DNA of 64,000 nucleotides, from contig CAZBUH010000001.1 of the NCBI GenBank assembly GCA_964495095.1, forward strand, positions 2,491 through 66,490, written 5' to 3'. Each line of letters starts with the position of its first letter. Position 1 is the first letter of the stretch. A program made the translations under genes and the position numbers. The stretch comes from an uncultured Oscillospiraceae bacterium. Lineage in GTDB: Bacteria; Bacillota; Clostridia; Oscillospirales; Oscillospiraceae. This document shows, piece by piece, positions 1 through 60,639 of this stretch. The notes beneath the pieces are model-generated. The model ran no database searches and was not told where the DNA came from. It saw only the letters and a program-made list of their open reading frames with translations.

Positions 1-580
1 CCAGCAGACGGTATTTCTGGTCGTAATTCCGCACCATAACCCCTGCCACCCGGCCGGAATTATCCGTTATGATGTCGGAGAAAAATGTGCGGCTGCTGAA
101 GGTCACATTTTCACGCTCGGCCACTATATAGGAGAGGGCTTTTACGGCCTCGCGCCCGGTTGCGTCGCCTCCGGCGTGGACTATCCTGTTTTTGCGGTGG
201 CCGCCCTCGCGGGTTATTTGCAGGTCGCCGTATTCGTTCAGATCAAAAGGAACGTTCATGGAGATAAGCTCTTTTACATCTTTTGGTCCCTCGTCAACAA
301 GCACCTTGACGGCCGCCTCGTTGCACAGCCCGGCTCCGGCGATAAGGGTGTCCTGAAAATGGAGCTCCGGGTCGTCGTCCGTGGAGATGGCCGCAGCAAT
401 ACCGCCCTGGGCCAGCCAGGTGTTGGAGATGGAAAGGTTTTCTTTTGTCAGGATACAGCAGGAGTAGTTTTCGTCCACATTGAGAGCGGTGTACAGCCCG
501 GCAAGTCCGGCGCCGACAATAACTACGTCGTAATACTGGACCTCTGAAATTTTTATGGAACTATCTGTCGCGTAACGCAT
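1..580 (-). CDS. nadB: L-aspartate oxidase, N-terminal ~193 codons (gene continues past the left window edge)
   Basis: Absent from the ORF track because it is open at the window edge. Manual minus-strand translation from ATG at 578-580 gives MRYATDSSIKISEVQYYDVVIVGAGLAGLYTAL..TWLAQGGIAAA..HFQDTLIAGAGLCNE..EGGHRKNRIVHAGGDATGRE. This shows the FAD GxGxxG fold plus NadB-type blocks. The + ORF 176..547 is its antisense shadow. Confidence 0.8.
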   Translation of the reverse strand, partial: MRYATDSSIKISEVQYYDVVIVGAGLAGLYTALNVDENYSCCILTKENLSISNTWLAQGGIAAAISTDDDPELHFQDTLIAGAGLCNEAAVKVLVDEGPKDVKELISMNVPFDLNEYGDLQITREGGHRKNRIVHAGGDATGREAVKALSYIVAERENVTFSSRTFFSDIITDNSGRVAGVMVRNYDQKYRLL

Positions 581-7650: not shown

Positions 7651-9495
7651 ATGCTTTTTCACGGAAAGAATAAAAAGATAACGAAGGCCTTCGGGCTGTC
7701 GGCGCTTGTGATAATGCTGTCCTTCTGGGCAGTCTGCATGTACTGGCTCACCTATGAGTCGGCATACGAAATACGGGAGAGCGCTACTGTCAAGGCAAAT
7801 TACTCCGCCCGGGAGGTTATGGAGCATGTCGGCGCCTGTTTTGAGCGTATAAATACCGGAAACCCGGGAGCAGTAGGCTATGCAGTGTGCCAGAGCCTGG
7901 ATATGCCGATATATGCGTCTTTTGGAGCAACGCTTGCGACTGCAAGCTATGATCTTAACGACGCTTACGCCGCGGCGATTTACGACAGCGAGGGCAATGA
8001 GCTTTTCAGGTCCGGAAATTTTATATATTTTAATTACTGCGACGACAGCGGAAATATTGATAATTTAGCCTACGCAATGCTGGATAAACAGTTTCCAAAC
8101 GCTGAGGCGGATGAGAACGGGTATAAATTTCCGGATATGTTTTCATTTATGTCCTGCCAGGAAGTGGAGCTTACGGGCGTGATGGACGGCGGTGAGCTTT
8201 TGCTGCAAAAAATAGTGGGCTTTGTACCGAAAGCGCCTGGTTCTGTCTCCGGTGACTGGATCACATTTTTTGAGGACTACTCCCTTGTGCCCAGGAATGC
8301 GGAAACCGTCACGCTTTCAACAGAGTTCGGATATTTCCATTTATCGTCTTATAATTACAGTGACCGCAAAGAACTGTGGAATACCCTCGAAAGCAATGCC
8401 AAATACAACATCGAGGGAAATGAGAACGTGGTTTTTAATTTGGAAAAGCTTTGGGATACCCGGCGTGTATATCAATATGAGATAATATGCGGCGGGGAAA
8501 AGCTCTATTATGCGGCGGCTGTCGGCTTTAACCCGCTAAGAGCAGCCGTGTCGCGGCTTTTGGGCGTCTATCTTATAACATTCGTTATGACTGTAGGCTG
8601 GCCTGCTGGTATGCTATTAGATCTGCGGAGTCGTATCGAAAAGCCGCTGAAGGAACTGAACAGAAGCTATTCCGCCGGATATAAGCGGCACCCCCTCTAC
8701 GGAAACAGCCTTAAATTTGCCGAGATAGAGCGCCTTGCGGAAAATTACGATGATGTCCAGCGGAAGCTGGATGAGAGGGATTCGCAGCTTATCGCCGCCC
8801 AAAAGGCCCTGGATTTTGCCAAAACAGCGGAGGAGAACAGAAGAATCCTAACCTCAAATATCGCGCATGAGCTGAAAACGCCCCTTGCCGTTATACATAG
8901 CTATGCCGAGGGCCTTCAGGAGCACATAGCGGAGGATAAGCGGGACCACTATCTTCGGGTTATCCTGGACGAGACGGAGCGGCTGGACAGCATGGTGCTG
9001 GATATGCTGGATATCTCAAGGATGGAGGCAGGAAAGACAAAGCTGTATAAGGAGAGCTTTTCCCTCCTTGAGCTTACGGAATCGGTGTTTGACAGGCTGC
9101 GTATGGCCTGCGAGGGCAAGAATATACAGGTCGAAATAAAGGCAGCGGAGAGAGTTGACACCTTTGCCGATGTGAGGCGGATGGAACAGGTGGTTGAAAA
9201 TTTGGCCACAAACGCCGTCAAGAATACCCGCTCCGGCGGCAGCATAACGGTAAATATCATCAAAAACAGCGGCGGCGACAAGACGCGTTTCTCCATAGAA
9301 AACGACGGCGATAATATCCCCGAGGATAAGCTGGAAAAGCTGTGGGACGTTTTTTACAGGACCGACAATTCCCGTGACCGTTCCGGCGGCACTGGCCTCG
9401 GCCTTGCCATAGTGAAAAATATAATCCAGCTCCACGGAGGGGGCTGCACTGTCCAAAACACTCCAAGGGGAGTGAGATTCAGCTTTACGGTATAA
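7651..9495 (+). CDS. sensor histidine kinase with a large extracytoplasmic domain
   Basis: Two TM segments flank a ~290-aa unrecognised sensor region. H-box is SNIAHELKTPL; N/G1/G2 boxes are present (ENDGDNIP, GTGLGLAIV). The start lies 2 nt after the regulator stop. Confidence 0.9.
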   Translation: MLFHGKNKKITKAFGLSALVIMLSFWAVCMYWLTYESAYEIRESATVKANYSAREVMEHVGACFERINTGNPGAVGYAVCQSLDMPIYASFGATLATASYDLNDAYAAAIYDSEGNELFRSGNFIYFNYCDDSGNIDNLAYAMLDKQFPNAEADENGYKFPDMFSFMSCQEVELTGVMDGGELLLQKIVGFVPKAPGSVSGDWITFFEDYSLVPRNAETVTLSTEFGYFHLSSYNYSDRKELWNTLESNAKYNIEGNENVVFNLEKLWDTRRVYQYEIICGGEKLYYAAAVGFNPLRAAVSRLLGVYLITFVMTVGWPAGMLLDLRSRIEKPLKELNRSYSAGYKRHPLYGNSLKFAEIERLAENYDDVQRKLDERDSQLIAAQKALDFAKTAEENRRILTSNIAHELKTPLAVIHSYAEGLQEHIAEDKRDHYLRVILDETERLDSMVLDMLDISRMEAGKTKLYKESFSLLELTESVFDRLRMACEGKNIQVEIKAAERVDTFADVRRMEQVVENLATNAVKNTRSGGSITVNIIKNSGGDKTRFSIENDGDNIPEDKLEKLWDVFYRTDNSRDRSGGTGLGLAIVKNIIQLHGGGCTVQNTPRGVRFSFTV

Positions 9496-13087: not shown

Positions 13088-13516
13088 GTGTTATTATCTT
13101 TCCTGGTGATGATCTTGACGGACTATTTTCATGTCTCCATGGAGTTAGAGGAGATAAATAAAATTTCAAATCTGGGCCTTGCCCATATAGGCGACGCCGT
13201 ATATGAGCTTATGGTGCGCTCCTGGCTGTGCGTTCGCGGCAAGGCCACGTCAAAAGGGCTGCACGCCGCCACGGTGTCCTATGTCCGGGCGCCGGCCCAG
13301 GCCGCAGCCGCCGGCAAGCTTCTGCCGGAGCTTACGGAGAGCGAGCGGGGAGTATATAAGCGCGGCAGGAACTCGCGTGTAAATTCCGTACCTCAGAAGT
13401 CCACACTGGAGGAGTACCATGCGGCTACAGGGCTGGAAGCGCTTTTTGGCTGGCTTTATCTCCAGGGGAAAACGGACAGGCTGAACGAGATTTTTAGTAT
13501 TATCATGGAGGACTGA
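13088..13516 (+). CDS. mrnC: mini-ribonuclease III
   Basis: Carries the RNase III-like signature LGLAHIGDAVYEL and a size of ~125-140 aa. The start is uncertain: GTG 13088, ATG 13109 or ATG 13139. Confidence 0.8.
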   Translation: MLLSFLVMILTDYFHVSMELEEINKISNLGLAHIGDAVYELMVRSWLCVRGKATSKGLHAATVSYVRAPAQAAAAGKLLPELTESERGVYKRGRNSRVNSVPQKSTLEEYHAATGLEALFGWLYLQGKTDRLNEIFSIIMED

Positions 13517-13518
13517 CA

Positions 13519-15267
13519 ATGCCACTTGACGCGGTATGCCTTTCGGCCCTTTGCGGTGAGCTGGGCCGGCGCATAATCGGTATGAAAATAGATAAGGTGC
13601 AGCAGCCTGAGAGGGACGAGATACTGCTGAATCTCCGGGGAAACGGCGACAACTGCCGGCTTCTTATATCAGCCGGAACGGGAAATGCCAGGGTGCATGT
13701 GACGGAGTTTTCCTACGAAAATCCTCAGACGCCGCCCATGTTCTGTATGCTTCTGCGAAAGCACCTTGTGGGCGCAAAGATATGCGGGCTCACGCAGCCG
13801 CCTATGGAGCGGATGCTGGATATGGAACTGGACACCTACGACGAGATGGGCGTATACTGCAAAAAACGGCTTATATTGGAGATTATGGGCCGCTACTCAA
13901 ATATCATCCTGGTGGGGCCCGACGGTATAATAATTGACTGCCTCCGGCGCGTCGATTCGGAGATGTCCGAAAGGCGCCAGGTGCTGCCGGGTCTTATATA
14001 CAGGCTTCCGCCGAAGCAGGATAAGCTTAACCCGGCGGAGACAGGCAGCCTTGAAGCTGTTTTTGGCCTGAATCCTCCGGCAGGGCAGCTTGATAAATGG
14101 CTTCTGGGCAATTTTGAAGGGCTTTCCCCCCTGATATGCCGCGAAATCGTAAGCCGGGCCTACGGCAGGACGGATATAAGAGCGGAGGAGTGTGACGATC
14201 TTCGCCCCCTGGCGTCGGAATTTGAAAGGCTTATGGGGAGCGTAAAAAGCGGAAGCTTTACTCCGCTGCTGCTCTCCGAACAGGGGAAACCGGCGGATTT
14301 CTCATATACGGACATAACCCAGTACGGCGATATATACGATAAAGAGAATATGGGGGGCTTTTCCCAGCTTCTTGAAGCGTATTATACAAGACGCGATAAA
14401 GCCGACCGGGTGCGCCAGCGGGCGCAGTCCATGACCAAAACCGTAAAAAACGCGGCAGCCAGGATAGAGCGGAAATTAAATCTCCAGCGTCAGGAGTACA
14501 CCGCCACCCTGGACAGGGACAGGCTCCGTCAGCAGGGCGATATAATCACTGCAAACCTCTATCAGATGCAAAAGGGCATGACGGTGCTGAAGGCCGCGGA
14601 CTTTTACTCTGAAGACGGTGTGGAGGTGGAAATTCGCCTTGACCCACGGAAAACCCCGCAGCAGAACGCGGCGAAATACTACAGGGATTACACAAAGGCG
14701 AAAAACGCCGAAAAGGTGCTGTCTGAGCAGATTTTAAGCGGGGAGAACGAGCTTCAGTATTTAAACAGCGTAATAGAGGAGATAGAAAAGGCCGAGGGCG
14801 AGCGGGATCTTGCGGAGATACGCCAGGAGCTTACGGACACGGGTTATCTCCGGCGCCAGAAGAGCGGGAAAAAGGAAAAGCGTGTTGAGCAGAAGCCCAT
14901 GCACTTCCGCTCGGAGAGCGGCTACGACATATGGGTGGGCAAAAACAATATCCAAAACGACCGTCTGACGCTGAAAACGGCTCTTAAAACGGATATCTGG
15001 CTCCACACCCAGAAAATACACGGCTCACATGTTATCATATCCTGCGGAGGCACAACGCCTGACAACGGGACGGTTGAGACTGCGGCGATGCTTGCCGCTC
15101 TCTATTCCCAGGGGCGGGAAAGCCGGAAGGTGCCAGTGGATTACACGGCGGTAAAAAATGTAAAAAAGCCCTCGGGAGGAAAGCCGGGAATGGTCATATA
15201 TGTGGACTACAAAACGGTTTTTGTTACGCCGGATGAAAAGCTCGCTGAAAAGCTCCGGGTAAAATAA
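13519..15267 (+). CDS. rqcH: ribosome quality control protein RqcH (NFACT family, formerly FbpA-like)
   Basis: 582 aa with an N-terminal NFACT-N pattern, a central coiled coil and a C-terminal DIWLHTQKIHGSHVII block. Confidence 0.85.
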   Translation: MPLDAVCLSALCGELGRRIIGMKIDKVQQPERDEILLNLRGNGDNCRLLISAGTGNARVHVTEFSYENPQTPPMFCMLLRKHLVGAKICGLTQPPMERMLDMELDTYDEMGVYCKKRLILEIMGRYSNIILVGPDGIIIDCLRRVDSEMSERRQVLPGLIYRLPPKQDKLNPAETGSLEAVFGLNPPAGQLDKWLLGNFEGLSPLICREIVSRAYGRTDIRAEECDDLRPLASEFERLMGSVKSGSFTPLLLSEQGKPADFSYTDITQYGDIYDKENMGGFSQLLEAYYTRRDKADRVRQRAQSMTKTVKNAAARIERKLNLQRQEYTATLDRDRLRQQGDIITANLYQMQKGMTVLKAADFYSEDGVEVEIRLDPRKTPQQNAAKYYRDYTKAKNAEKVLSEQILSGENELQYLNSVIEEIEKAEGERDLAEIRQELTDTGYLRRQKSGKKEKRVEQKPMHFRSESGYDIWVGKNNIQNDRLTLKTALKTDIWLHTQKIHGSHVIISCGGTTPDNGTVETAAMLAALYSQGRESRKVPVDYTAVKNVKKPSGGKPGMVIYVDYKTVFVTPDEKLAEKLRVK

Positions 15268-26188: not shown

Positions 26189-27193
26189 TTAATTTTTTTC
26201 TTCTTTTTTATAAGCGGCGAGGGGATTCATAACAGCGGCCTCGCGGAGATTCTGATCGTCTACGTGGGTGTATATTTCGGTGGTGTTCAAATGCTCGTGA
26301 CCCAGCAGCTCCTGCAGGGTTCTGACATCCACGCCGTTGTGCAGCATAAGCGTGGCGGCAGTATGCCGGAGCTTGTGAGCGGAATACTTGGTGCTGTCTA
26401 TCCCGGCGTATGCAAGGTGTTTTTTTACGAGGTTATGTACGGTGGAACGGCTTATGCGCTTTCTTTGGGCCGAGAGGAAAAGTGCGTTTTTATCCACCGC
26501 CGCGATATTTTTGCGTATATCAAGATACTGGTTTATAGCATCGGCGCAGGCGTCGTTCAGGAAAACCATGCGCTCCTTATTTCCCTTGCCAAGTACCCTG
26601 ATGGAATCCGGCCGGATATCTGTGAGATTTAAGCCCACAAGCTCAGATATACGCAATCCGCAGTTTAAAAAAATTGTCAGGATGCAAAAATCACGTTCCC
26701 GGTTTTTTCCATCAACAGAATTTAAAAGCTGTATACTTTCGTCAAGGGTCAGATAGTGGGGAAGTGACTTCATAATTTTCGGAGAGTCCAGGTCCTCAAG
26801 AGGATTTGTCTCCAGTATTCCGGCCTTTGTGGAAAGGTACTTGTAATAGGAACGGAGAGTTGAAATTTTTCTGGCCCTTGAGGTGGCGCCGAGCCCGTAA
26901 TCGGTGGAGCGGCTGTTCTGGTGCTTTGCCCGGTCCCTTGCCAAAAAGCCGAGAAAATCGTAAACATCGGAAAGGGTTACGGATTTTACAAAATCGGCGT
27001 CAACGTCTGAGATGGTTATGCTCTCAAACTCCGTATCCCTGGGGACGATATTACGTTTGATTTTCATATATCTAAAGAACATGCGCAAATCGAGATAGTA
27101 TTCGTCCACGGTTTTTCTCGAGTGGCCCTTGACCGTCTCGTGATATGTGAGGAAATTCCTTATAATCTCAGGCGCTTCATTCCGGTAATCCAT
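26189..27193 (-). CDS. tyrosine recombinase (XerC/XerD-like)
   Basis: 334 aa with an N-terminal SAM-like core-binding domain. The catalytic set R..K..HKLRHT..LLGHEHLNTTEIYTHV carries the R-H-R-Y signature. Confidence 0.88.
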   Translation of the reverse strand: MDYRNEAPEIIRNFLTYHETVKGHSRKTVDEYYLDLRMFFRYMKIKRNIVPRDTEFESITISDVDADFVKSVTLSDVYDFLGFLARDRAKHQNSRSTDYGLGATSRARKISTLRSYYKYLSTKAGILETNPLEDLDSPKIMKSLPHYLTLDESIQLLNSVDGKNRERDFCILTIFLNCGLRISELVGLNLTDIRPDSIRVLGKGNKERMVFLNDACADAINQYLDIRKNIAAVDKNALFLSAQRKRISRSTVHNLVKKHLAYAGIDSTKYSAHKLRHTAATLMLHNGVDVRTLQELLGHEHLNTTEIYTHVDDQNLREAAVMNPLAAYKKEEKN

Positions 27194-32271: not shown

Positions 32272-32453
32272 GCAGATGTCAGCTTCCATTAGAGAACACA
32301 ACAGATAATCCCTATATAAATAACTGAATATCCTTCTTTTTAGAACGGACTGAAAGAATGAATAACCTACGGGCCTTGTGCGATGGAGATTGTGAACAAA
32401 AAATCATTTTCACACAACAGACAGGCTGCAGGGAGAAATCCCTGCCGTATCAC

Positions 32454-32472
32454 TTCCGAAAAGTTTCCGAAA
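32454..32472 (+). repeat. direct repeat 2 x TTCCGAAA with 11-bp period; candidate operator
   Basis: Exact 8-mers at 32454-32461 and 32465-32472. A degenerate third copy TTGAAAAG at 32486-32493 overlaps the -35 hexamer. Confidence 0.9.
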
Positions 32473-32485
32473 TACACAGGGTGTA

Positions 32486-32514
32486 TTGAAAAGTCAAAAA
32501 CAAAAATCTATAAT
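32486..32514 (+). promoter_or_regulatory. sigma-A type promoter for the riboswitch-ribU operon
   Basis: TTGAAA, a 17-nt spacer, then TATAAT. It lies ~20 nt upstream of the riboswitch. Confidence 0.65.
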
Positions 32515-32532
32515 TTATCTGACAACTGAATA

Positions 32533-32672
32533 AGGGTATCTTCAGGGCAGGGTGAAATTCCCGATTGGCGGTATAGTCCGCGAGCGTGAAAACGCAGGAT
32601 TTGGCATTGTTCGGATCAGGATTTGGTGAAATTCCAAAACCAACAGTATAGTCTGGATAGAAGAAGATAAAT
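32533..32672 (+). promoter_or_regulatory. FMN riboswitch (RFN element) aptamer
   Basis: Conserved core blocks are present: CTTCAGGGCAGGGTGAAATTCCCGATTGGCGGTATAGTCCGCGAGC, then GATTTGGTGAAATTCCAAAACCAACAGTATAGTCTGGATAGAAGAAGA. Confidence 0.93.
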
Positions 32673-32725: not shown

Positions 32726-32766
32726 GCACCTGAAAGATATTTTTCAGGTGCAAATTTTATTTTACG
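32726..32766 (+). terminator. riboswitch expression-platform terminator
   Basis: Hairpin GCACCTGAAAGATA / TTTTTCAGGTGC followed by AAATTTTATTTT. Its left arm CCTGAAAGATA (32729-32739) can alternatively pair with the P1 5' strand TATCTTCAGG (32537-32546). That is a plausible antiterminator, so this would be an FMN OFF switch. Confidence 0.75.
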
Positions 32767-32779
32767 GAGGCATTTAACT

Positions 32780-33430
32780 ATGGAAAGCAAAACAAAGAAA
32801 ATGGCCACGATAGCAACGCTTGCAGCAATGGCGTTCGTAATGGTGACTTTCGTTCGTATTCCAGTTGTACTATTTTTGGAATATGAGCCTAAAGACATTA
32901 TCATTACATTAGGCGGCTTTATATGGGGACCGCTGGCTTCTTTTATTGTTTCGGTAATTGTTTCATTGATTGAATTGGTGACAATCAGCGAAGACGGAAT
33001 TTTGGGATTTATTATGAATATCATATCGACCTGCGCGTTTGCCTGCACGGCAGCTTTTATTTACAAGAAGAAACGGACATTGTCTGGTGCTGTTATCGGT
33101 TTATGTGCGGGCACATTGTTGATGGTGGTAGTAATGCTGTTGTGGAACTATTTAATTACACCGATTTACATGGGATTTCCTCGTGAAGCTGTTGCCGAAC
33201 TACTTATTCCCGCTTTTCTTCCATTCAATTTGATTAAAGGCGGATTAAACGCAGCATTTACATTTATGCTTTATAAGCCGGTAACAACAGCATTACGAAA
33301 AACAGGATATATATCAGCTTCCCATAATGAACAAGCGCCAAAGAAAAAGCCGATTGGATTGTGGATACTTTTTGGAATAATCATTGTTACTTGTATTTTG
33401 CTTACATTATCATTAAATGGGATTATATGA
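32780..33430 (+). CDS. ribU: ECF-transporter S component, riboflavin-specific (RibU/FmnP-like)
   Basis: 216 aa with ~6 TM. ATG 32780 follows a GGAGG RBS. The upstream ORF extension from 32693 runs through the terminator. Substrate is inferred from the FMN riboswitch directly upstream. Confidence 0.8.
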   Translation: MESKTKKMATIATLAAMAFVMVTFVRIPVVLFLEYEPKDIIITLGGFIWGPLASFIVSVIVSLIELVTISEDGILGFIMNIISTCAFACTAAFIYKKKRTLSGAVIGLCAGTLLMVVVMLLWNYLITPIYMGFPREAVAELLIPAFLPFNLIKGGLNAAFTFMLYKPVTTALRKTGYISASHNEQAPKKKPIGLWILFGIIIVTCILLTLSLNGII

Positions 33431-33439
33431 GGAAATATT

Positions 33440-34135
33440 ATGCAACGAATTTCAGATAATTCCCCATTATGTAAGTTTTCAGGTGAAGTAATACATGGGC
33501 GTGGCATAGGAAAGTTAGTCGGGATGCCAACGGCTAATCTGCAAATATCATCTGATGTGAAATTGCCGCCCAATGGGGTTTATATTACAAAAATTATATA
33601 TAATAGCTACATATATTACGGGATAACCAATATAGGGACTCGTCCTACGATTGATACAGACAGCGAAATATCTGTTGAAACGCATATTCTTAACTTCAAT
33701 CAAGGGATATATGGAGAGAGATTGGAAATTGAACTCTTTGAGATGCTTCGCAGTATCAGAAAATTTGAGGATTTTTCTTCTCTTTTAGAGCAGATACGAA
33801 AGGATTGCATTGCAACACAAGATTTTTTCGGCTTAGAAAGAACCTACTCACGGTTGCAGATGGATATTGAAAAACATCAAGCAAGAGTTGATAACCGAGA
33901 GGTCTGTCTATCAAACAAAGAATTTGATGTCTTGTATATGCTATATTCCAATCCCGATATTAGCTATACGAAAGAGCAAATTTATGAAGCTATCTGGCAT
34001 GAGCCATCTATAGGCAATTGCCATGCCGTAGAAAATACTGTTTTTCAAATTAGAAAAAAGTGCAAAGCACTTGCAGAAAATGTTGAATTCATCAAAACTG
34101 TTGTTGGATACGGATATAAGTTTTGCAGCAATTAA
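33440..34135 (+). CDS. riboflavin-kinase domain fused to an OmpR/PhoB-type winged-helix DNA-binding domain (putative flavin-responsive transcription regulator)
   Basis: Single 231-aa ORF. The N-terminal part is GEVIHGRGIGKLVGMPTANL..NGVY..NIGTRPT..ETHILNF..IYGERLEIELFEMLR..KFEDFSSLLEQIRKD. The C-terminal part is LSNKEFDVLYMLYSNP..YTKEQIYEAIW..AVENTVFQIRKK..IKTVVGYGYKF. A GAGGA RBS is present, 9 nt after the ribU stop. Confidence 0.8.
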   Translation: MQRISDNSPLCKFSGEVIHGRGIGKLVGMPTANLQISSDVKLPPNGVYITKIIYNSYIYYGITNIGTRPTIDTDSEISVETHILNFNQGIYGERLEIELFEMLRSIRKFEDFSSLLEQIRKDCIATQDFFGLERTYSRLQMDIEKHQARVDNREVCLSNKEFDVLYMLYSNPDISYTKEQIYEAIWHEPSIGNCHAVENTVFQIRKKCKALAENVEFIKTVVGYGYKFCSN

Positions 34136-34269: not shown

Positions 34270-35628
34270 TTAAGCTTTTTTCAGTATTTTTTCTTTTTGG
34301 GAAAAGTATTCCCGCAGCATTTTGCAGACAACGCCCGACAGGCCTGTCACTCCTATGAGATTTGGAACGCACATAAGCCCGTTTAAGGCGTCGGAAATAT
34401 CCCACAGCATTTCTGAAGTGCCGATACAGCCTAAAAACACCGCCAGTATTACGATGCAGTTATATACCGGCACCAGCCTTTCGCCGCCCAGATACCGGCA
34501 GCAGGTCCTGCCGTAGTGGGACCACCCAATTATAGTGGTAAAGGCGAACAGGGCTATGGCAGCGGCGATGCCGATTCCGGCAAAATCTCCAAAGCCGTTT
34601 ACAAACGCCCTTATTGTTATGGCCGCGCCGTTCATGCCGCAGTCGGTTATCTGGATGCCGGACGTCAAAATTACAAGCGCCGTCATGGTACAGATAACTA
34701 TAGTGTCCACGAACACCTCAAAGCAGCCCCACATGGCCTGATCTATGCCGCTTTTCACCTCCGCCGAGGAGTGAGCCATAGCCGAGGAGCCGATTCCGGC
34801 CTCATTCGAGGATATGCCGCGGCTTATTCCAAACCGCACGGCCCTGGATGCGGCGACGCCCAGTATACCGCCCCGGACAGCGCTGCCCGCAAAGGCGTCC
34901 CGGAATATTGCCAATATTGCTTCCGGCAGCTTTGTGAAATTAAGCCCTATAAGAACCAGGCTGCCCAATATATACAGTATCGCGGCGGCGGGCACTATCT
35001 TTTCCGCAGCTGCGCTTATTCTTTTTGCTCCGCCGAATATCACCGCGGCGGAGACCGCCGACAGAACTATGCCCGTGACGCAGGGCTTTACTCCAAACAT
35101 GGTCTCCATGGCGGAGGAGACGGAATTTGACTGTACGCCGGCCCCGACTCCCAGAGAGGCGCCCAGGCACAGCACTGCGTAAATTACGGCCAGCCATCTG
35201 CAATGCAGCCCCTTTTCAATGTAGACCATCGGCCCGCCTATCCACTGGCCGTCTTTTCCCATATATCTGTATCCGACAGCAAGGGCTATCTCAAAAAACT
35301 TGGTCATCATGCCGAAAAGCGCCGACACCCACATCCAGAATACAGCCCCCGGCCCGCCGGAATATATAGCGACGGCAACGCCCACGATATTTCCCGTGCC
35401 GATTGTGGCCGCCAAGGCCGTACACAGCGCCTGAAACGGGGTTATGGCGTTCTTTTTGTTTTTATTTCCGCTCTTTATCGCCCCTATGGTGCCTTTCATC
35501 CACAGGGGGAATTTCTTAAATTGAAAAAATCCGGAACGGGCGGTAAAAAACACGCTCAGAATAAGCAGAATGGCGCACATAACAGGGCTCCACACAAAAT
35601 TCCCAAGGGCCGACACAAAATTTCCCAT
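34270..35628 (-). CDS. alanine/glycine:cation (sodium) symporter, AGCS family
   Basis: Polytopic, with a typical AGCS N-terminus (MGNFVSALGNFVWSPVMCAILL..) and GTGNIVGVA. ATG 35628 has a GGAGGGA RBS. The 98-codon extension in the track crosses a terminator and the neighbouring gene. Confidence 0.88.
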   Translation of the reverse strand: MGNFVSALGNFVWSPVMCAILLILSVFFTARSGFFQFKKFPLWMKGTIGAIKSGNKNKKNAITPFQALCTALAATIGTGNIVGVAVAIYSGGPGAVFWMWVSALFGMMTKFFEIALAVGYRYMGKDGQWIGGPMVYIEKGLHCRWLAVIYAVLCLGASLGVGAGVQSNSVSSAMETMFGVKPCVTGIVLSAVSAAVIFGGAKRISAAAEKIVPAAAILYILGSLVLIGLNFTKLPEAILAIFRDAFAGSAVRGGILGVAASRAVRFGISRGISSNEAGIGSSAMAHSSAEVKSGIDQAMWGCFEVFVDTIVICTMTALVILTSGIQITDCGMNGAAITIRAFVNGFGDFAGIGIAAAIALFAFTTIIGWSHYGRTCCRYLGGERLVPVYNCIVILAVFLGCIGTSEMLWDISDALNGLMCVPNLIGVTGLSGVVCKMLREYFSQKEKILKKA

Positions 35629-35668
35629 AGCGCTTCCCTCCTTCTTGTCCAAAATATGAACTGAGAAG

Positions 35669-35707
35669 CAGAAAAATACCGCCCGTCCGGTTTTTCCGGG
35701 CGGGCGG
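35669..35707 (-). terminator. rho-independent terminator after the TIGR03936-type gene
   Basis: 12-bp stem CCGCCCGTCCGG / CCGGGCGGGCGG, followed by TATTTTTCTG on the minus strand. Confidence 0.8.
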
Positions 35708-35723
35708 CTTCGTCGCAGGGATA

Positions 35724-36389
35724 TTATCTGAACACATTCATATCCGAATCCAGCACTTCCATTCGCTTGAATTCCGTGAAATCCGGAGCCAGAAACGGCT
35801 TTTTCTGTTCGATTGCTGAAATTATATTGTTTGGATTCAAGGCCGGATTCTGAGCTGAAATTACGGCTCTTACAAAGATTCCCGTATCGGACAGTTTGGA
35901 AAACAGGATGGCGTTTATACACGGGATAATGTCAAAATCCGTTATGCCCTTTTTCGATTTTTTCTGTATCACCAGATTATCGCCGGTGAAAAGGCTGTTA
36001 AGCTCCCCGCAGGCGCTGTCAGGGACGCCCTTATCGTATGTGAGCAGACCGCAGATCTCCAGCCAGGCTATTTCCTTTAATTTGCGCTCGGCCTCATAGA
36101 CCTTTACGACAGTTATGCCGGAGGGCATGGAGGCGTTCATCATTTCCGGAACCTTTTCAAGGGGGATGTCGCTTAAAAGCTCAAAATCCATTAGCTCGCA
36201 CTGGCTCTCACATCCCACTGAAAGCGGCAGCGCGATTGAGATAAACGGGTGCGGGTTAAATCCCTCTGTGTGCTTTACGCTTAGGCCGGAGCGTATAAAA
36301 ACCCTCTGCATGGTGCGCATAAGGTCAAGATGGGAGATATACTGGGCAAGCCCTTCCTTGTAAAACAGCATTCTGTGCTTATTATTCAT
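35724..36389 (-). CDS. radical SAM-associated protein, TIGR03936/DUF2344 type
   Basis: 221 aa containing YISHLDLMRTMQRVFIRSGL..HTEGFNPHP. It overlaps the upstream radical SAM gene by 8 nt. Confidence 0.8.
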   Translation of the reverse strand: MNNKHRMLFYKEGLAQYISHLDLMRTMQRVFIRSGLSVKHTEGFNPHPFISIALPLSVGCESQCELMDFELLSDIPLEKVPEMMNASMPSGITVVKVYEAERKLKEIAWLEICGLLTYDKGVPDSACGELNSLFTGDNLVIQKKSKKGITDFDIIPCINAILFSKLSDTGIFVRAVISAQNPALNPNNIISAIEQKKPFLAPDFTEFKRMEVLDSDMNVFR

Positions 36390-38217
36390 CGCACGGGCCC
36401 CCTTTGTAAAGAATGTTGGCGCCGCAGCCTGTGCATTTTACACGGCAGTCGGGGGTTATCTCGCTCCTGTAGGCGGCCTCTCTCTCACGCCACATAAAAT
36501 CCTTGCTTACGCCGACACTCGTAACGCTCCAGGGCAGTATCTCGTCTTTTTCCCGTACCCGATGGGCATAAAACGACGGTTTAACGCCAACGGCATTAAA
36601 CGCATCCATCCAGCACTGGAAGGAGAAATATTCGCCCCAGGAGTCCAGCTTGGCGCCGTTTTTCCAGGCTTCCTCGATAACCGCGCCTATCCGCCTGTCC
36701 CCTCTTGAGAGTACGGCCTCCATATAGCTTGTCTCCGGCTCGTGCCAGTTGTATGTGATATTCTTTACCCGCAGGTTTTCCCGCAGGAGCGTAACCTTGC
36801 GCATGTATTCCTCCATTGTGTTCTGCGCCTCCCACTGGAATGGCGTGTGAGGCTTGGGCACAAAGCAGGAGGTGCTGACTGTAACTCTCACGCCGCGGCT
36901 TTTATTGGGCGTTACCTCGCGCCACAGGCTGAGCACTTTTTTTGCAAGCTCCGCAATGGCGATAACGTCCTCGTCCGTTTCTGTGGGAAGTCCCAGCATA
37001 AAATAGAGCTTAAGTCCGCTCCAGCCGCCCTCAAAGGCGATACGGCAGGAATTTAAAACGTCCTCCTCCCGGACATTCTTGTTGATAGCGTCCCGCAGCC
37101 GCTGGCTCCCCGCCTCCGGAGCAAATGTAAGTCCTGTTTTCCTGACTTTCTGGACCCGCTGCATAAGGTCCATGGAGAAATTATCCGCCCGGAGGGACGG
37201 AAGCGAAAGGCTTATATTCCTCGGCTCACACCACTCCAAAAGCCCGTCGCAGAGATTGTAGAGAGGCTTATAGTCGCTGGTACTCAGGGAGGACAGCGTG
37301 ACCTCCTCGTAGCCGGAATTCAAAAGGGCCTCTTTTCCCTGTTCTATAAGCTTTTCATACGCTCTCGGACGCACAGGCCGGTAGGCGTATCCCGCCTGGC
37401 AGAAGCGGCAGCCCCGTATGCAGCCGCGGAATATTTCAAGAACCACCCTGTCATGGACTATCTCCGTGGAGGGCACTATCTGATGCACGGGGAAATAGGA
37501 ATTTGTAAAATCCTGCACTATGCGTTTTGTGACCGGCATTTTTGCCCCCTCTGCAGGGGTAATGCTCTCAATAGTGCCGTCATTCTTATATTTCACGTCA
37601 TACAGCGACGGAACATACACTCCGTCGATTTTTGCTGCCTCACAGAGAAAACTCTGTTTATCCCATCCCTCGTTTCTCGCTTTCCGGTAAAGCTCGATTA
37701 CTTCAGGATCCATGTCCTCCCCTTCTCCCAAAACGAAGAGGTCGATAAAATCTGACATGGGCTCCGGGTTATAACAGCTTGTACCTCCGGCGAAAACAAT
37801 AGGCGTGAGTTCGTGCCTGTCCGCTGAGTGGAGAGGCAGCCCGGCCATATCCAGCATATTCAGCACGTTGGTGTACGCCATCTCATAGCCCAGGGAAAAG
37901 GCTATCATGTCAAAATCCGAAACAGGGTCGCCGCTCTCCAAGGCGTAAAGAGGGATGCCGTTTTCCCGCATCTCCTTTTCCATGTCGCCCCAGGGCGCAA
38001 ATACACGCTCACACCACACGCCGTCCATATTATTTATAACGCCGTAAAGTATCTTCATTCCCAAATTGGACATGCCTATCTCGTAAGTATCAGGGAAACA
38101 GAAGGCCACTCTGGTGTCAACCCGGTTTTTATCCTTGATTATCTCGTTATATTCTCCCCCGGTATAGCGCGCGGGCTTCTGTACCCTGGGCAGAATACGC
38201 TTTAATCTGCTGTCCAT
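36382..38217 (-). CDS. B12-binding-domain radical SAM protein, TIGR03960 type
   Basis: Contains KPARYTGGEYN near the N-terminus and a radical SAM cluster motif CIRGCRFCQAG. The start is taken at MDSRLKRIL (38217). The longer ORF to 38331 overlaps the M50 peptidase gene. Confidence 0.82.
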   Translation of the reverse strand: MDSRLKRILPRVQKPARYTGGEYNEIIKDKNRVDTRVAFCFPDTYEIGMSNLGMKILYGVINNMDGVWCERVFAPWGDMEKEMRENGIPLYALESGDPVSDFDMIAFSLGYEMAYTNVLNMLDMAGLPLHSADRHELTPIVFAGGTSCYNPEPMSDFIDLFVLGEGEDMDPEVIELYRKARNEGWDKQSFLCEAAKIDGVYVPSLYDVKYKNDGTIESITPAEGAKMPVTKRIVQDFTNSYFPVHQIVPSTEIVHDRVVLEIFRGCIRGCRFCQAGYAYRPVRPRAYEKLIEQGKEALLNSGYEEVTLSSLSTSDYKPLYNLCDGLLEWCEPRNISLSLPSLRADNFSMDLMQRVQKVRKTGLTFAPEAGSQRLRDAINKNVREEDVLNSCRIAFEGGWSGLKLYFMLGLPTETDEDVIAIAELAKKVLSLWREVTPNKSRGVRVTVSTSCFVPKPHTPFQWEAQNTMEEYMRKVTLLRENLRVKNITYNWHEPETSYMEAVLSRGDRRIGAVIEEAWKNGAKLDSWGEYFSFQCWMDAFNAVGVKPSFYAHRVREKDEILPWSVTSVGVSKDFMWREREAAYRSEITPDCRVKCTGCGANILYKGGPCDE

Positions 38218-38281
38218 AAAAACACATCCATAAAAATATTGCATGTCCTTGCCATCTGAAAGACCGACAGGCAAACATGGG

Positions 38282-38908
38282 CTAATAGTATTGTATACCC
38301 CCGCCGCGGCTTTTACAAGAATTAAAAGCAAGCCAAAGCGCCATGAAAAGCAGGGTAAAATTTCTGCCGGTGCTTATAAGCAGATAAATTCCGGCCGGCA
38401 GCATCAGGGCCAGAATAATGATATCAATAATTTTTGAAACCCTCTCCGCAGTCTCAACCCCGCCCTTCATGGCGGTAAAAGCGAAAACAAGGCCGCCTCC
38501 GTCAAGGCCGCTTACAGGAATCAGGTTAAAAACGCCGTAAATAAGGCTAAGCCCCGCGGCGTCATAAAAGCGCTCTCCGAAAAGCGACAGCAGGTATGCT
38601 GAAATAAAGCTCGCCGCTGGCCCGGCGGCGATGGCGGCTATTTCACCCCAATAGCCCAGCGTTCCGGCAGAACAGCTCATAGTCAGTCCTGAGACCGAAA
38701 ATTTGAGAAGCCTTATCTCCGCCCCCTGAAGCTTCAGCGCAGCGGCGTGGCCAAGCTCATGCAGAAATATCGCGCATAGGGCGCTGAGGCACAGCTTTCC
38801 GTCAAAAAAGTAAAGCACGGAAAAAATCAGCAAAAAACCGCTTGTTATCCGTGCTTTGCCCGCGGAGATAACGTTATTGTCCGCCATTGTCAGAAAAAGC
38901 CGTCTCAT
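38282..38908 (-). CDS. site-2 protease family (M50) metallopeptidase, short form without a CBS domain
   Basis: Has HELGH (FLHELGHAAAL) and NLIPVSGLDGG motifs and is polytopic. The alternative start ATG 38887 is possible. Confidence 0.8.
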   Translation of the reverse strand: MRRLFLTMADNNVISAGKARITSGFLLIFSVLYFFDGKLCLSALCAIFLHELGHAAALKLQGAEIRLLKFSVSGLTMSCSAGTLGYWGEIAAIAAGPAASFISAYLLSLFGERFYDAAGLSLIYGVFNLIPVSGLDGGGLVFAFTAMKGGVETAERVSKIIDIIILALMLPAGIYLLISTGRNFTLLFMALWLAFNSCKSRGGGIQYY

Positions 38909-43711: not shown

Positions 43712-43930
43712 AACCCCTCCGAAAAAAGTAAAATCCCTGAGGTATAAACCTCAGGGCGAATAATATCCGTGGTACCACCTGAATTCCGTAAAAACAGCTC
43801 TCACATGCCCGATAACGGAGGCTGCCCGTCCGGGCTTAATCTGTTTCGGCCCGGAGGTTCATGGACGACTTCCCTCCCGCTTCACGAAAGCTCACACCAG
43901 ACGCTTTCTCTCTTTGCTTCGGCCGCAGAG
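43712..43930 (-). promoter_or_regulatory. T-box leader (Val) with terminator/antiterminator
   Basis: On the minus strand: an AGAGA motif early in stem I, GAA-GUC-GUC in the specifier region (plus 43864-43869) and the T-box sequence AAUUCAGGUGGUACCACG (plus 43769-43786). The terminator is CCCTGAGGT / ACCTCAGGG (43735-43756) plus a U run. Confidence 0.85.
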
Positions 43931-43979
43931 GTACTGCTTCCAATCTTAACCTTTGTAATATAAAAGAAGTATACAAAAT

Positions 43980-58219: not shown

Positions 58220-58575
58220 GGGGGTGTACCGGTTTCGACGGGGGTGTGGAGGCCGGAATAGCGGGCGGATGCGCCTAACATCCATAAAATGGGCAACTTA
58301 TAAATTAAAGAACAACGATTCTTTAGAATTAGCGGCTGCTTAACGCCGCTCGCTCCCCCGGAGAGGGCCACGGCTTCGGGCTGAGCGTCACTTAGTGGCG
58401 TCCGTGAGTGTGCAAAGCTTTGAGTACACCATGCACAATGAAGCTACCGAATTCTGACGCGTGACGGTTTGCGTCATAATAAGGGAACTGGCTATGCCGA
58501 AATAACCGCCTGCGCCCGGAGAAGTTCCTGTTAAAACACTTTCGGACAGGGGTTCAACTCCCCTCACCTCCACCA
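58220..58575 (+). ncRNA. ssrA: transfer-messenger RNA
   Basis: 5' GGGGGTGTACCGGTTTCGACGGGG and 3' GGACAGGGGTTCAACTCCCCTCACCTCCACCA form an acceptor stem with a G3:U70 pair. The internal tag ORF GCA ACT TAT AAA .. GCG GCT GCT TAA gives ATYKLKNNDSLELAAA. smpB lies 1.3 kb upstream. Confidence 0.93.
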
Positions 58576-60562: not shown

Positions 60563-60639
60563 TGGTACGCCAGAAGGGACTCGAACCCCCGATCTCACGG
60601 TTCGTAGCCGTGCACTCTATCCAGCTGAGCTACTGGCGC
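60563..60639 (-). tRNA. tRNA-Arg (anticodon ACG)
   Basis: 77-nt cloverleaf with encoded CCA: GCGCCAG TA GCTC AGCTGGATA GAGT G CACGG CT-ACG-AA CCGTG AGATC GGGGG TTCGAGT CCCTT CTGGCGT A CCA. Confidence 0.9.

Follow-up and report, generated by a model that had tools for sequence, protein, structure and literature searches.

A riboflavin kinase joined to an OmpR/PhoB-type winged helix in Clostridia: a candidate autoregulator of riboflavin uptake and synthesis with a conserved predicted operator

Bacterial riboflavin genes are usually described as being controlled by the FMN riboswitch. The locus described here, located in a 64-kb stretch of DNA (the window), raises the question of whether a protein may act on the same pathway, since a gene found directly behind a riboswitch-controlled ribU-like gene appears to join a riboflavin kinase to a DNA-binding domain and had been proposed, in a first-pass annotation, to encode a DNA-binding regulator tied to flavin metabolism. 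The elements of the operon are the following:

32454..32473, + strand: predicted operator, a tandem direct repeat, TTCCGAAA-N3-TTCCGAAAT
32486..32514, + strand: Sigma-A-type promoter, TTGAAA at 32486-32491, 17-nt spacer, TATAAT at 32509-32514
32534..32672, + strand: FMN riboswitch aptamer (RFN element), Rfam RF00050
32726..32761, + strand: intrinsic terminator from a terminator scan, an 11-bp stem followed by AAATTTTATT
32780..33430, + strand: ribU-like ECF-transporter S component of 216 aa (Pfam ECF_trnsprt 2e-17, ECF-ribofla_trS 1.6e-8)
33440..34135, + strand: gene of the fusion protein (riboflavin kinase domain, short linker, OmpR/PhoB-type winged helix-turn-helix)

The fusion gene is a single intact ORF of 231 aa that runs uninterrupted from its ATG, as the first-pass annotation had read it. 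Pfam places Flavokinase (PF01687, the riboflavin kinase family, EC 2.7.1.26) at residues 12-129 (E=4e-36, 124.3 bits with the cut-off at 19.6, covering 6-123 of the 124 profile positions) and Trans_reg_C (PF00486) at residues 153-228 (E=1e-15, 57.9 bits against a cut-off of 26.2, the full profile, 2-77 of 77), in good agreement with the earlier expectation of ~10-135 and ~150-228. The same annotation had noted that this protein lacks both an FAD-synthetase module and a receiver, and scans with Pfam and NCBIfam indeed return neither an FAD-synthetase (FMN adenylyltransferase) module nor a receiver domain with its phospho-acceptor Asp, there being no Response_reg match. Among the NCBIfam models, those for RibF are matched over their C-terminal third only (model positions ~171-318) and their equivalog cut-offs are far from reached (for example, 119 vs 241), while those for OmpR-family response regulators are matched only in the C-terminal effector part, roughly positions 100-230. 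Judged by its domain content, the protein is thus a one-component system and not a response regulator.

An AlphaFold model of moderate quality (pLDDT 77.6, pTM 0.58) predicts a riboflavin-kinase beta-barrel and a winged helix-turn-helix (residues ~137-228, with the recognition helix at 195-211), confirming both folds, the end of the kinase helix being separated from the first winged-helix strand by a linker of only ~8 residues. With a pTM of 0.58, the model says nothing reliable about inter-domain communication, the interface or dimerisation. When TM-scores are normalised to the target, its kinase half resembles 5a89, 5a8a, 1q9s and 1n06 (0.6-0.72) and its C-terminal half the DNA-binding domains of GlnR, CovR and YycF (0.83-0.88); no PDB chain spanning both halves was returned by the fold search with this model. 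The best PDB sequence matches of the C-terminal half are the CosR chains 8uvx and 8uuz, then 2hqn and 2hqr, which we take to be HP1043, and further response-regulator chains, namely 5vfa, 5u8k and 5u8m, the last two of which are labelled RitR in the fold search.

Both halves show strong purifying conservation across 30 homologues reaching down to 52% identity. In the kinase half, the invariant positions are G28, P30, T31, A32, N33, Y48, G66, P69, T70, E80, R104 and F109; in the recognition helix and wing they are H195, A196, E198, N199, T200, Q203, R205, K219, T220, G223, G225 and Y226. The PTAN motif (residues 30-33) aligns to P207-T208-A209-N210 of the Corynebacterium ammoniagenes FAD synthetase, and T31, N33 and E80, the last belonging to the E-T-H stretch at residues 80-82, to its T208, N210 and E268, so that the reported retention of PTAN and E-x-H is borne out by this alignment. 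One divergent clade, represented by loci L071 and L072, carries PTAD in place of PTAN. From the invariant catalytic residues and by analogy with the archaeal regulator RbkR, we infer that the protein converts riboflavin to FMN; if the genomes concerned also encode a canonical RibF, the kinase domain may be mainly a sensor. No FAD synthetase was found among the ten ORFs of the window scanned with Pfam, a window too small for a genome-wide statement. Four ORFs of RibF-like size (305-334 aa) proved to be an aldolase, an integrase, a membrane transporter and a pyridine-nucleotide oxidoreductase.

The domain co-occurrence and phyletic spread suggested for inspection by the first-pass annotation reveal a conserved family, confined to Clostridia and comprising 425 clusters at 90% identity, with relatives encoded at 98 genome loci. 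The gene is also present in the complete genomes AP031437.1 and NZ_CP173695.1. Both domains are present in all of the best 120 of these clusters, which are 52-94% identical to the fusion protein and ~231 aa long. Only a few loci retain a single half: L078 has the winged helix alone, and L079 and L080 have the kinase alone, in operons made of ribU and a stand-alone 132-aa kinase devoid of a DNA-binding domain. Such operons indicate that the pairing of ribU with the kinase is older than the fusion. Many of the nearest kinase-domain relatives in a representative library are likewise stand-alone proteins, of 126-146 aa.

In the window, the fusion gene starts 9 nt after the end of the ribU-like gene, whose product is presumed from its Pfam matches to be the riboflavin uptake subunit. 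The aptamer upstream is matched over its full length (1-138) at 106.9 bits against a gathering score of 66.2, and the terminator at 32726..32761 sits between it and the ribU start codon, where it serves as the expression platform of the riboswitch; Pfam and Rfam therefore agree with the description of the gene as following a riboswitch-controlled ribU at 9 nt. This order is widespread, as 58 of the 71 full-length fusion genes in our own ORF calling lie directly downstream of ribU on the same strand, with intergenic distances of -55 to +15 nt in all but three cases (63-141 nt), and the remaining ones adjoin ribDEBAH.

Upstream of the riboswitch, the best promoter match of the region (TTGAAA-17-TATAAT, 11/12 positions) is preceded by the predicted operator, whose two repeats, TTCCGAAA at 32454-32461 and TTCCGAAAT at 32465-32473, are 11 bp apart, measured between their centres. 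If transcription starts near 32521, as estimated, the site spans about -67 to -48 and is centred near -58, and the -35 element begins 12 nt downstream of it. An 11-bp direct repeat is the established binding geometry of OmpR/PhoB-family dimers. The site is the only exact match to the pattern in the 64-kb window and scores 35.6 bits with a position weight matrix, against 7.1 bits for the next independent match, so that no second site is found in the window by this matrix. The predicted operator falls inside 32440-32520, the stretch proposed earlier for EMSA.

The same element recurs in related genomes. It is the top match in 67 of 81 loci, at 24-38 bits and always on the + strand, while shuffled controls do not exceed 19.2 bits across 405 shuffled loci; second-best matches are mostly below 20 bits, and weak secondary matches (15-21 bits) are only four. 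It lies either 59-68 nt 5' of the riboswitch or immediately in front of ribU or the fusion gene. The 67 loci comprise riboswitch-ribU-fusion (44), ribU-fusion without a riboswitch (15), fusion-ribDEBAH without a riboswitch (7) and riboswitch-ribDEBAH-fusion (1), and the fusion gene is the only gene common to all of them, ribU being absent from operons of the ribDEBAH type. Schaedlerella arabinosiphila DSM 106076 (L015) and Lachnospiraceae bacterium M18-1 (L075) are two isolates with the fusion-ribDEBAH arrangement. When 57 unique loci are aligned without gaps, the -35 TTG and the -10 TAT..T occupy fixed columns relative to the operator, although the sequences of the spacers between the three are unconserved; the operator always stays clear of both promoter elements and of the transcription start, and its 12-nt gap to the -35 element is invariant across very divergent species.

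The link between protein and site, which is predicted from the co-occurrence of the 11-bp direct repeat and the winged-helix domain in 67 of the 81 loci, is backed by negative controls. At L079, where riboswitch and ribU precede the 132-aa kinase without winged helix, the operator is absent (at L080 the upstream DNA is too short to judge), and a second FMN riboswitch at L077, with no fusion gene downstream, has no operator either. In the divergent clade L071/L072, the recognition helix is altered to HPVENLxxKLRKK and three T(T/C)TCCA(A/G)T repeats at an 11-bp period replace the usual operator, which suggests that protein and site vary together. Against the link, L022 of Sedimentibacter has the fusion gene and no detectable operator over 8 kb of upstream DNA. 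The whole arrangement is also mobile: a 1.66-kb cassette moves between genera, its homology beginning exactly at the operator and extending as far as the fusion gene's stop codon.

An unbiased scan of metagenomes for the operator pattern TTCCGAAWWNNTTCCGAAAT, for which the figures refer to the matches listed (at least 120 stretches), gave about 17 matches with a promoter-type layout, and in these ribU and the fusion gene follow wherever the contig is long enough, L141 excepted. On its own, the pattern turns up in many unrelated sequences as well, most of them 11-bp tandem repeats of soil and water origin. No new target gene, and hence no further regulon member, appeared among the matches listed. 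L165, L175 and L092 were inspected as extra targets and judged to be chance or unrelated occurrences.

No FMN riboswitch was found in 32 loci by Rfam covariance-model scans at the gathering threshold. Riboswitches merely missed by nhmmer are rejected as an explanation, because these covariance models are also negative and the leaders of the 22 operator-bearing operons concerned, just 27-144 nt long, are mostly too short for an aptamer plus an expression platform. About one third of the related operons, including biosynthetic ones of the ribDEBAH type, have no riboswitch, and the operator is the sole recognisable regulatory element there. As far as comparative sequence evidence goes, the early idea of a flavin-linked regulator that binds DNA gains strong support from the conserved operator, present in 67 of the 81 loci, the 22 riboswitch-less operons among them.

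The fusion protein probably combines riboflavin kinase activity with the role of an autoregulatory transcription factor, as a bifunctional "trigger enzyme" exerting flavin feedback. According to this proposal, an ATP-dependent kinase converting riboflavin to FMN would be joined to an OmpR/PhoB winged-helix one-component transcription factor, and two C-terminal winged-helix domains would bind TTCCGAAA-N3-TTCCGAAAT head-to-tail, near -58. The target would be the protein's own operon, with the order ribU-fusion in the window and, in some relatives, fusion-ribD-ribE-ribBA-ribH. Whether the kinase is occupied by its substrates (riboflavin, ATP) or its products (FMN, ADP) would govern how the protein binds DNA or touches RNA polymerase, and flavin status would in this way feed back on transcription initiation of riboflavin uptake or synthesis genes. 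DNA binding, its control by ligands and the sign of regulation are what we infer here. In the window, control by the protein at initiation would operate in series with control by the FMN riboswitch at elongation, a second flavin-responsive layer that looks redundant wherever the riboswitch is present; in the riboswitch-less third of the operons, the protein would be the only recognisable flavin-linked control.

A more far-reaching account, for and against which we see the chances as evenly balanced, is that this is the first dedicated DNA-binding transcription factor of bacterial riboflavin metabolism, arisen independently of RbkR. It would have originated when a ribU-linked monofunctional riboflavin kinase was fused to an OmpR-type winged helix, would sense the substrate or product state of its own active site and would act on the promoter as an activator bound at a class-I-like position. 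The regulator would have fully supplanted the FMN riboswitch in some lineages, giving rise to the riboswitch-less ribU and ribDEBAH operons, whereas others would run a two-checkpoint circuit, with protein at initiation and RNA at elongation. The operator-promoter-riboswitch-ribU-regulator module would spread among gut genera by means of the 1.66-kb cassette and of a large mobile element.

OmpR-family sites located upstream of the -35 element are typically activating. Given that the predicted site is found 5' of the -35 element and in rigid phase with it, and by analogy with those sites and with RbkR, an activator switched off by its product FMN is marginally favoured as the sign of regulation; a ligand-dependent repressor instead is less probable, though a serious contender. 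As regards a feedback repressor with the same architecture and operator but the opposite sign, in which the FMN- or riboflavin-loaded protein binds the tandem repeat and lowers initiation, for instance by preventing alpha-CTD or UP-element contacts between about -67 and -48, we consider it rather unlikely. The promoter is close to consensus and well conserved in relatives and should fire unaided, and repression fits near-consensus promoters at least as well as activation does; moreover, feedback repression is the usual logic of vitamin operons, as it is for BirA and NadR (PMC5397151). However, a site that leaves the -35 element, the -10 element and the start clear, at an invariant 12-nt gap, is the pattern expected of an activator contacting RNA polymerase, in line with the typical behaviour of OmpR-family sites, and the functional analogue RbkR has been inferred to be an activator released by FMN (PMC5397151).

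The remaining alternatives question the regulatory role itself. The protein could be chiefly an enzyme, a monofunctional kinase that traps RibU-imported riboflavin as FMN, with no flavin sensing at the DNA and a winged helix that provides just ligand-independent constitutive autoregulation or localisation. Its invariant catalytic residues, the operons of ribU and stand-alone kinase (L079, L080) and the many stand-alone kinase relatives speak for this view; nevertheless it appears improbable, given the very short linker of the predicted structure, the retention of the fusion in hundreds of clusters and the 22 riboflavin operons, among them ribDEBAH operons needing feedback, in which the operator is the only regulatory element. 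Together, these three features argue that the DNA-binding half has a regulated function. Very improbable, in our view, is that the TTCCGAAA repeat is bound by another factor or constitutes a promoter-upstream element while the winged helix acts on other targets. The operator-protein link does rest on co-occurrence, and the bare pattern turns up in many unrelated metagenome sequences, but the fusion gene is the sole gene present in every operator-bearing operon, the site is absent where the kinase lacks the winged helix and in L071 and L072 varies in step with the recognition helix, direct repeats spaced at 11 bp are the layout that OmpR-type domains read, and the mobile cassette runs exactly from operator to fusion gene. 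Finally, the probability is negligible that the fusion stems from an error of assembly or sequencing, or that two genes were joined recently in a pseudogene-like manner: apart from the few one-half loci, this reading has nothing beyond its prior in its favour, whereas the best 120 homologues, from many independent assemblies and isolates, all carry both domains at ~231 aa, relatives occur at 98 genome loci and both halves are under strong purifying conservation, which together rule out an artefact or a frameshift.

The impression that a Flavokinase plus Trans_reg_C regulator had not been described holds within the searchable literature, in which no description of this architecture was found. 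For riboflavin control in bacteria, a 2026 review names only the riboswitch and RibR (PMC13028884), and finB of a preprint on riboflavin in C. scindens is a bifunctional RibF homologue, different from the fusion protein (bioRxiv 10.64898/2026.02.13.705874). The conserved tandem-repeat operator predicted before a vitamin B2 operon is new here, and the combined data suggest an undescribed protein regulator of riboflavin uptake and synthesis that acts with the FMN riboswitch or, in some genomes, instead of it. If true, this would be a natural case of riboswitch replacement in gut Clostridia, with a regulator placed atop the riboswitch in some operons and in its stead in about one third, so that protein and RNA sensing of one pathway could be compared directly. 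A testable operator-regulator pair for vitamin B2 uptake and synthesis would be available in Lachnospiraceae and Oscillospiraceae, the former being a family in which about half of the reference genomes are predicted riboflavin auxotrophs (bioRxiv 10.64898/2026.02.13.705874). Likewise, a small-molecule kinase would join the known inputs of OmpR-type DNA-binding domains, and the compact mobile module might serve as a flavin-responsive expression switch for anaerobes.

When compared with known systems, each half of the protein has familiar relatives. Its kinase domain is homologous to that of RibF/RibC (E=1.6e-15 to 3op1; also 1mrz, 5a88 and 2x0k), with the catalytic PTAN motif and Glu kept, but the N-terminal FMN adenylyltransferase module is lacking and a DNA-binding domain has been added. 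With OmpR/PhoB response regulators, including the atypical, phosphorylation-independent members CosR, RitR and HP1043, it shares the fold and sequence family of the C-terminal domain, and the site predicted for it, two direct repeats spaced at 11 bp and placed 5' of the -35 element, resembles theirs; in contrast to them, its input module is a small-molecule kinase, with neither receiver nor phospho-acceptor Asp.

Bacillus subtilis RibR consists of an N-terminal riboflavin kinase of the RibF C-terminal type and a nucleic-acid-binding C-terminus that influences rib and ribU expression. Compared by description, both proteins thus fuse a monofunctional riboflavin kinase domain to a regulatory nucleic-acid-binding C-terminus; that of RibR, however, binds the RNA of the FMN riboswitch and is tied to sulfur metabolism, whereas that of the fusion protein is an OmpR-type winged helix (Trans_reg_C) with a predicted DNA operator and 22 target operons devoid of a riboswitch. 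RibR is described as overriding the riboswitch (PMC13028884). BirA and NadR likewise combine an enzyme of a vitamin or cofactor pathway with a DNA-binding domain and control their own pathway according to ligand state (PMC5397151), although they are repressors built from other enzyme folds and DNA-binding domains and serve other pathways.

The closest counterpart is archaeal. RbkR, a bifunctional riboflavin kinase and transcription regulator, was presented in 2017 as the first known transcription factor of riboflavin metabolism. Its operators are located 5' of the promoters that serve ribU, the genes of riboflavin synthesis and the gene of RbkR itself; the nucleotide substrate stimulates its binding to DNA, FMN suppresses it, and RbkR is a likely activator (Rodionova et al. 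2017, PMC5397151). The likeness is functional only: both proteins pair a riboflavin kinase with a winged helix, the predicted operator of the fusion protein precedes ribU-fusion or fusion-ribDEBAH operons, and RbkR stands in for the FMN riboswitch, which is missing in archaea. The parts themselves are not homologous, RbkR being a CTP-dependent archaeal RibK-type kinase with an N-terminal winged helix, PF12802 (PMC5397151), and the fusion protein an ATP-dependent Flavokinase of the bacterial/eukaryotic type (PF01687) with a C-terminal Trans_reg_C domain (PF00486), that is, in reversed domain order. Its operator is moreover a direct repeat, and it occurs in Clostridia, often alongside an FMN riboswitch. 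The best reading of the fusion protein is as a bacterial analogue of RbkR assembled from non-homologous parts, which, if true, would make the pair a clean example of convergence.

The fusion gene (33440..34135, + strand) is one continuous 231-aa ORF, as the first-pass annotation had described it, and has an ATG start. Pfam recovers both of the domains expected there, at aa 12-129 for Flavokinase (PF01687; 124 bits, E=4.3e-36) and at aa 153-228 for Trans_reg_C (PF00486; 58 bits, E=1.1e-15). In line with that reading, Pfam and NCBIfam find no receiver domain and no FAD-synthetase module: the protein matches the NCBIfam RibF models only in their C-terminal kinase part, and the OmpR-family response-regulator models only in their C-terminal effector part, in both cases with scores far below the equivalog cut-offs. 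When 30 family members, with identity down to 52%, are aligned, the invariant residues of the kinase half are G28, P30, T31, A32, N33 (P30 to N33 forming the PTAN motif), Y48, G66, P69, T70, E80, R104 and F109, and those of the DNA-binding half are W186, H195, A196, E198, N199, T200, Q203, R205, K219, T220, G223, G225 and Y226. T31, N33 and E80 correspond in the alignment to T208, N210 and E268 of the Corynebacterium ammoniagenes FAD synthetase, positions that in riboflavin kinases bind phosphate and Mg and provide the catalytic base. The AlphaFold model (pLDDT 77.6, pTM 0.58) consists of a beta-barrel, a long helix (112-129) and, about 8 residues further on, a four-element winged-helix domain. 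In Foldseek searches the two halves match separately, the first to riboflavin-kinase modules (TM-score normalised to the target about 0.7) and the second to OmpR-family DNA-binding domains (about 0.85), and no solved chain spanning both halves was found among the structures searched.

Among 5.8 billion clustered proteins, 425 clusters match at E<=1e-5; the best 120 all have both Pfam domains and a length of about 231 aa, and the sources call them simply 'winged helix-turn-helix domain-containing protein' or 'riboflavin kinase'. The family is compact: in the library clustered at 50% identity no more than 23 representatives reach E<=1e-30, about a dozen being full-length fusions. Scanning one genome per species gave 98 loci encoding a relative, all in Clostridia: Lachnospiraceae, Oscillospiraceae, candidate Faecalibacterium species, Flavonifractor plautii, Hungatella, Sellimonas, Blautia, Lacrimispora, Faecalicatena fissicatena and Sedimentibacter. 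The co-occurrence and phyletic spread of the two domains, which the first pass had suggested examining, are on this comparative evidence those of a real, conserved family.

In the window, the fusion gene does lie 9 nt after a riboswitch-controlled ribU, as had been claimed, and the features of the region and of the rest of the window are as follows.

Features of the window
26189-27193 (-): phage-type integrase
32454-32473: predicted operator, TTTCCGAAAAGTTTCCGAAAT, same sequence as in fusion-ribDEBAH operons
32486-32491 and 32509-32514: promoter, TTGAAA, 17 nt, TATAAT, the best promoter match in the region
32534..32672: full-length FMN riboswitch upstream of the ribU-like gene, scoring 106.9 bits (gathering score 66.2)
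32726-32751 plus T-tract: intrinsic terminator between riboswitch and ribU, the riboswitch expression platform
32780..33430: ribU-like ECF S-component gene, ending 9 nt before the fusion gene (ECF_trnsprt 2e-17, ECF-ribofla_trS 1.6e-8)
33440..34135 (+): fusion gene
34270-38331 (-): sodium:alanine symporter, DUF2344 protein and radical-SAM protein, convergent with the fusion gene
43749-43956 (-): T-box leader
58220-58575 (+): tmRNA
60566-60639 (-): tRNA

No RibF/FAD synthetase was found among the window ORFs tested. When ORFs were called and clustered in 80 loci, ribU was directly upstream of the fusion gene on the same strand for 58 of 71 full-length genes, with gaps of -55 to +15 nt save for three outliers of 63-141 nt. 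Seven loci have the fusion gene first in an operon fusion-ribD-ribE-ribBA-ribH, and a single one (L003) has it last, after ribDEBAH (gene identities by Pfam). A flavodoxin gene (PF12682) follows the fusion gene in loci L019-L025.

The predicted operator, a tandem direct repeat TTTCCGAAAAGTTTCCGAAAT, was seen first upstream of the fusion-ribDEBAH operons, and its exact pattern occurs once in the 64-kb window. With a PWM made from exact pattern matches and then iterated, the window site has a score of 35.6 bits and the next independent match one of 7.1 bits. The top match reaches 24-38 bits in 67 of 81 loci, on the coding strand in every case, and lies 59-68 nt upstream of the FMN riboswitch or directly upstream of ribU or the fusion gene. 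Second-best matches mostly overlap on the reverse strand or stay below 20 bits, and order-1 Markov shuffling of the loci (405 shuffles) gave maximum scores of 3.2 bits on average and of 19.2 bits at most. Stacked without gaps, the 57 unique sites share the layout operator, 12 nt, TTG (-35), about 17 nt, TAT..T (-10), with spacers variable in sequence and fixed in length; in the window, where transcription is estimated to start near 32521, the repeats occupy about -67 to -48. Direct half-sites 11 bp apart are the geometry of OmpR/PhoB-type winged-helix dimers, as in the DNA complexes of PhoB, KdpE and PmrA.

The sole gene common to all operator-bearing operons is the fusion gene, ribU being missing from the ribDEBAH type. 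Two loci, L079:7049-8399 and L080:203-601, have a riboswitch, ribU and a stand-alone riboflavin kinase of 132 aa without a DNA-binding domain; no operator was detected in L079, and L080 has merely about 200 nt of upstream DNA, too little to judge its presence. Such operons suggest that the fusion derived from a ribU-linked monofunctional kinase, and their layout is probably the ancestral, pre-fusion state. Nor is there an operator at the second FMN riboswitch of locus L077 (11613-11724, -), which no fusion gene follows; downstream of it are a small-membrane-protein-like fragment, a 4Fe-4S protein and two flavodoxin genes. In the divergent pair L071/L072, PTAN is replaced by PTAD and the recognition helix reads HPVENLxxKLRKK rather than HAVENTxFQIRKK, and in place of the usual operator its intergenic regions (L071:7640-7700, L072:3870-3915) contain three T(T/C)TCCA(A/G)T repeats with an 11-bp period, which look like a variant operator. 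In these two loci ribU is divergently transcribed and the FMN riboswitch is immediately 5' of the fusion gene.

The operator pattern was used for an unbiased scan of metagenomes, which gave mostly unrelated tandem repeats; where a match had the promoter-type layout, ribU and the fusion gene were present whenever the contig was long enough, except in L141 (OLNY01001126.1). There, an operator, promoter and FMN riboswitch nearly identical to those of the window (25-238) are followed by convergent unrelated genes, with no ribU or fusion gene downstream; a deletion, an orphan leader or an assembly chimera might account for this. On two soil metagenome contigs (L175:60-978, L092:1188-3692), ORFs matching the winged helix of the fusion protein adjoin TTCCGAAA tandem repeats; they are otherwise unrelated to the fusion gene and resemble ToxR/CadC-type regulators, and the adjacency may be chance or may reflect related winged-helix domains reading similar half-sites. 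Sedimentibacter acidaminivorans (L022:7589-8675) has an apparently disrupted or frameshifted ribU upstream of the fusion gene, with neither operator nor FMN riboswitch detectable within 8 kb upstream of the latter.

In Rfam scans at the gathering threshold, 32 loci had no FMN riboswitch, and the 67 operator-bearing operons are distributed over four layouts.

Layouts of the 67 operator-bearing loci
Operator, riboswitch, ribU, fusion (the type of the window): 44 loci
Operator, riboswitch, ribDEBAH, fusion: 1 locus
Operator, ribU, fusion, with a leader of only 27-77 nt: 15 loci
Operator, fusion, ribDEBAH, with a leader of 68-144 nt: 7 loci

As the last two lack a riboswitch, about a third of the operons have the operator as their only recognisable regulatory element before genes of riboflavin uptake or synthesis. 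The fusion-ribDEBAH leaders share a conserved hairpin (L006:7930-8006, with equivalents in L008, L009, L012, L013, L015 and L075), in which an 8-bp stem AAAUGCCG/CGGUAUUU is nested in an outer stem and the loop C(G/A)CCUGAA is identical in six of seven sequences; three pairs show compensatory changes among just these seven related sequences, and no U-tract follows the hairpin.

One subgroup carries the unit as a 1.66-kb cassette (operator, promoter, FMN riboswitch, ribU and fusion gene; L053:7012-8679), with homology that begins at the operator and stops at the fusion gene's stop codon; its copies in several genera, which have unrelated flanks, share 93-95% identity. Counterparts are found in L042, L043, L044, L046, L048 and L051 (93-95% identity across L042-L048, 83% in L051). 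In seven loci (L050, L053, L054, L056, L057, L058 and L061), from Lacrimispora, Hominiventricola, Laedolimicola and Oscillospiraceae, nearly all of each 8-16 kb locus is 95-99% identical. This larger region, which resembles a mobile element spreading riboflavin uptake together with its regulator, also encodes a MobA/VirD2 relaxase, a YpsA protein, a sigma-70 region-4 protein and a nitroreductase. The same element has three stand-alone Trans_reg_C-only ORFs of 144-170 aa, matching fusion-protein residues ~137-230 (L053:5321-5833 (+), 8840-9274 (+) and 13232-13666 (-)), which may be competing or related winged-helix regulators, and a weaker operator-like site of 20.7 bits at L053:~3123 (-) and L058:~3124 (-).

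Most likely, the fusion protein is both a riboflavin kinase and a one-component regulator of its own operon: it would phosphorylate riboflavin, and occupancy of the kinase site would set DNA binding or contact with RNA polymerase. The operator, the promoter, the regulon layout and the natural variants without a riboswitch, all now in hand beyond the original observation, support the early proposal of a DNA-binding regulator tied to flavin metabolism, and we consider it likely that a flavin-linked autoregulatory transcription factor acts at the predicted TTCCGAAA repeats. In the window, control would have two tiers, the fusion protein acting on initiation and the FMN riboswitch on elongation. 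As to the sign of regulation, we lean slightly towards an activator contacting RNA polymerase, because the operator lies upstream of the -35 element in rigid phasing and the loop before the recognition helix (W186, H187, E188 ... H195), which we take to be the counterpart of the PhoB transactivation loop, is strongly conserved among the 30 aligned members. The promoter elements are near-consensus, which would suit a ligand-dependent repressor, a role that we hold to be possible and rather less probable.

No bacterial regulator combining Flavokinase with an OmpR-type domain is described in the full-text literature searched, most subscription journals lying outside its scope, so that the original claim of an undescribed architecture stands within that literature; a 2026 review of riboflavin regulation gives as bacterial regulators the riboswitch and RibR only (PMC13028884). 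In archaeal RbkR, DNA binding is stimulated by the nucleotide substrate and suppressed by FMN, the operators lie upstream of promoter elements, and RbkR is a likely activator (PMC5397151). The fusion protein would work alike, with the same regulatory logic, but is not a member of the RbkR family: the RbkR kinase is a CTP-dependent RibK instead of PF01687, its DNA-binding domain is PF12802 instead of Trans_reg_C, and the domain order is reversed. With OmpR/PhoB response regulators it has the output domain in common while missing their defining receiver, and with B. subtilis RibR it has the kinase domain in common, the partner domain of RibR binding RNA. Conceptually, it would be a trigger protein uniting enzyme and regulator, in the same class as BirA and NadR, and in function an analogue of RbkR.
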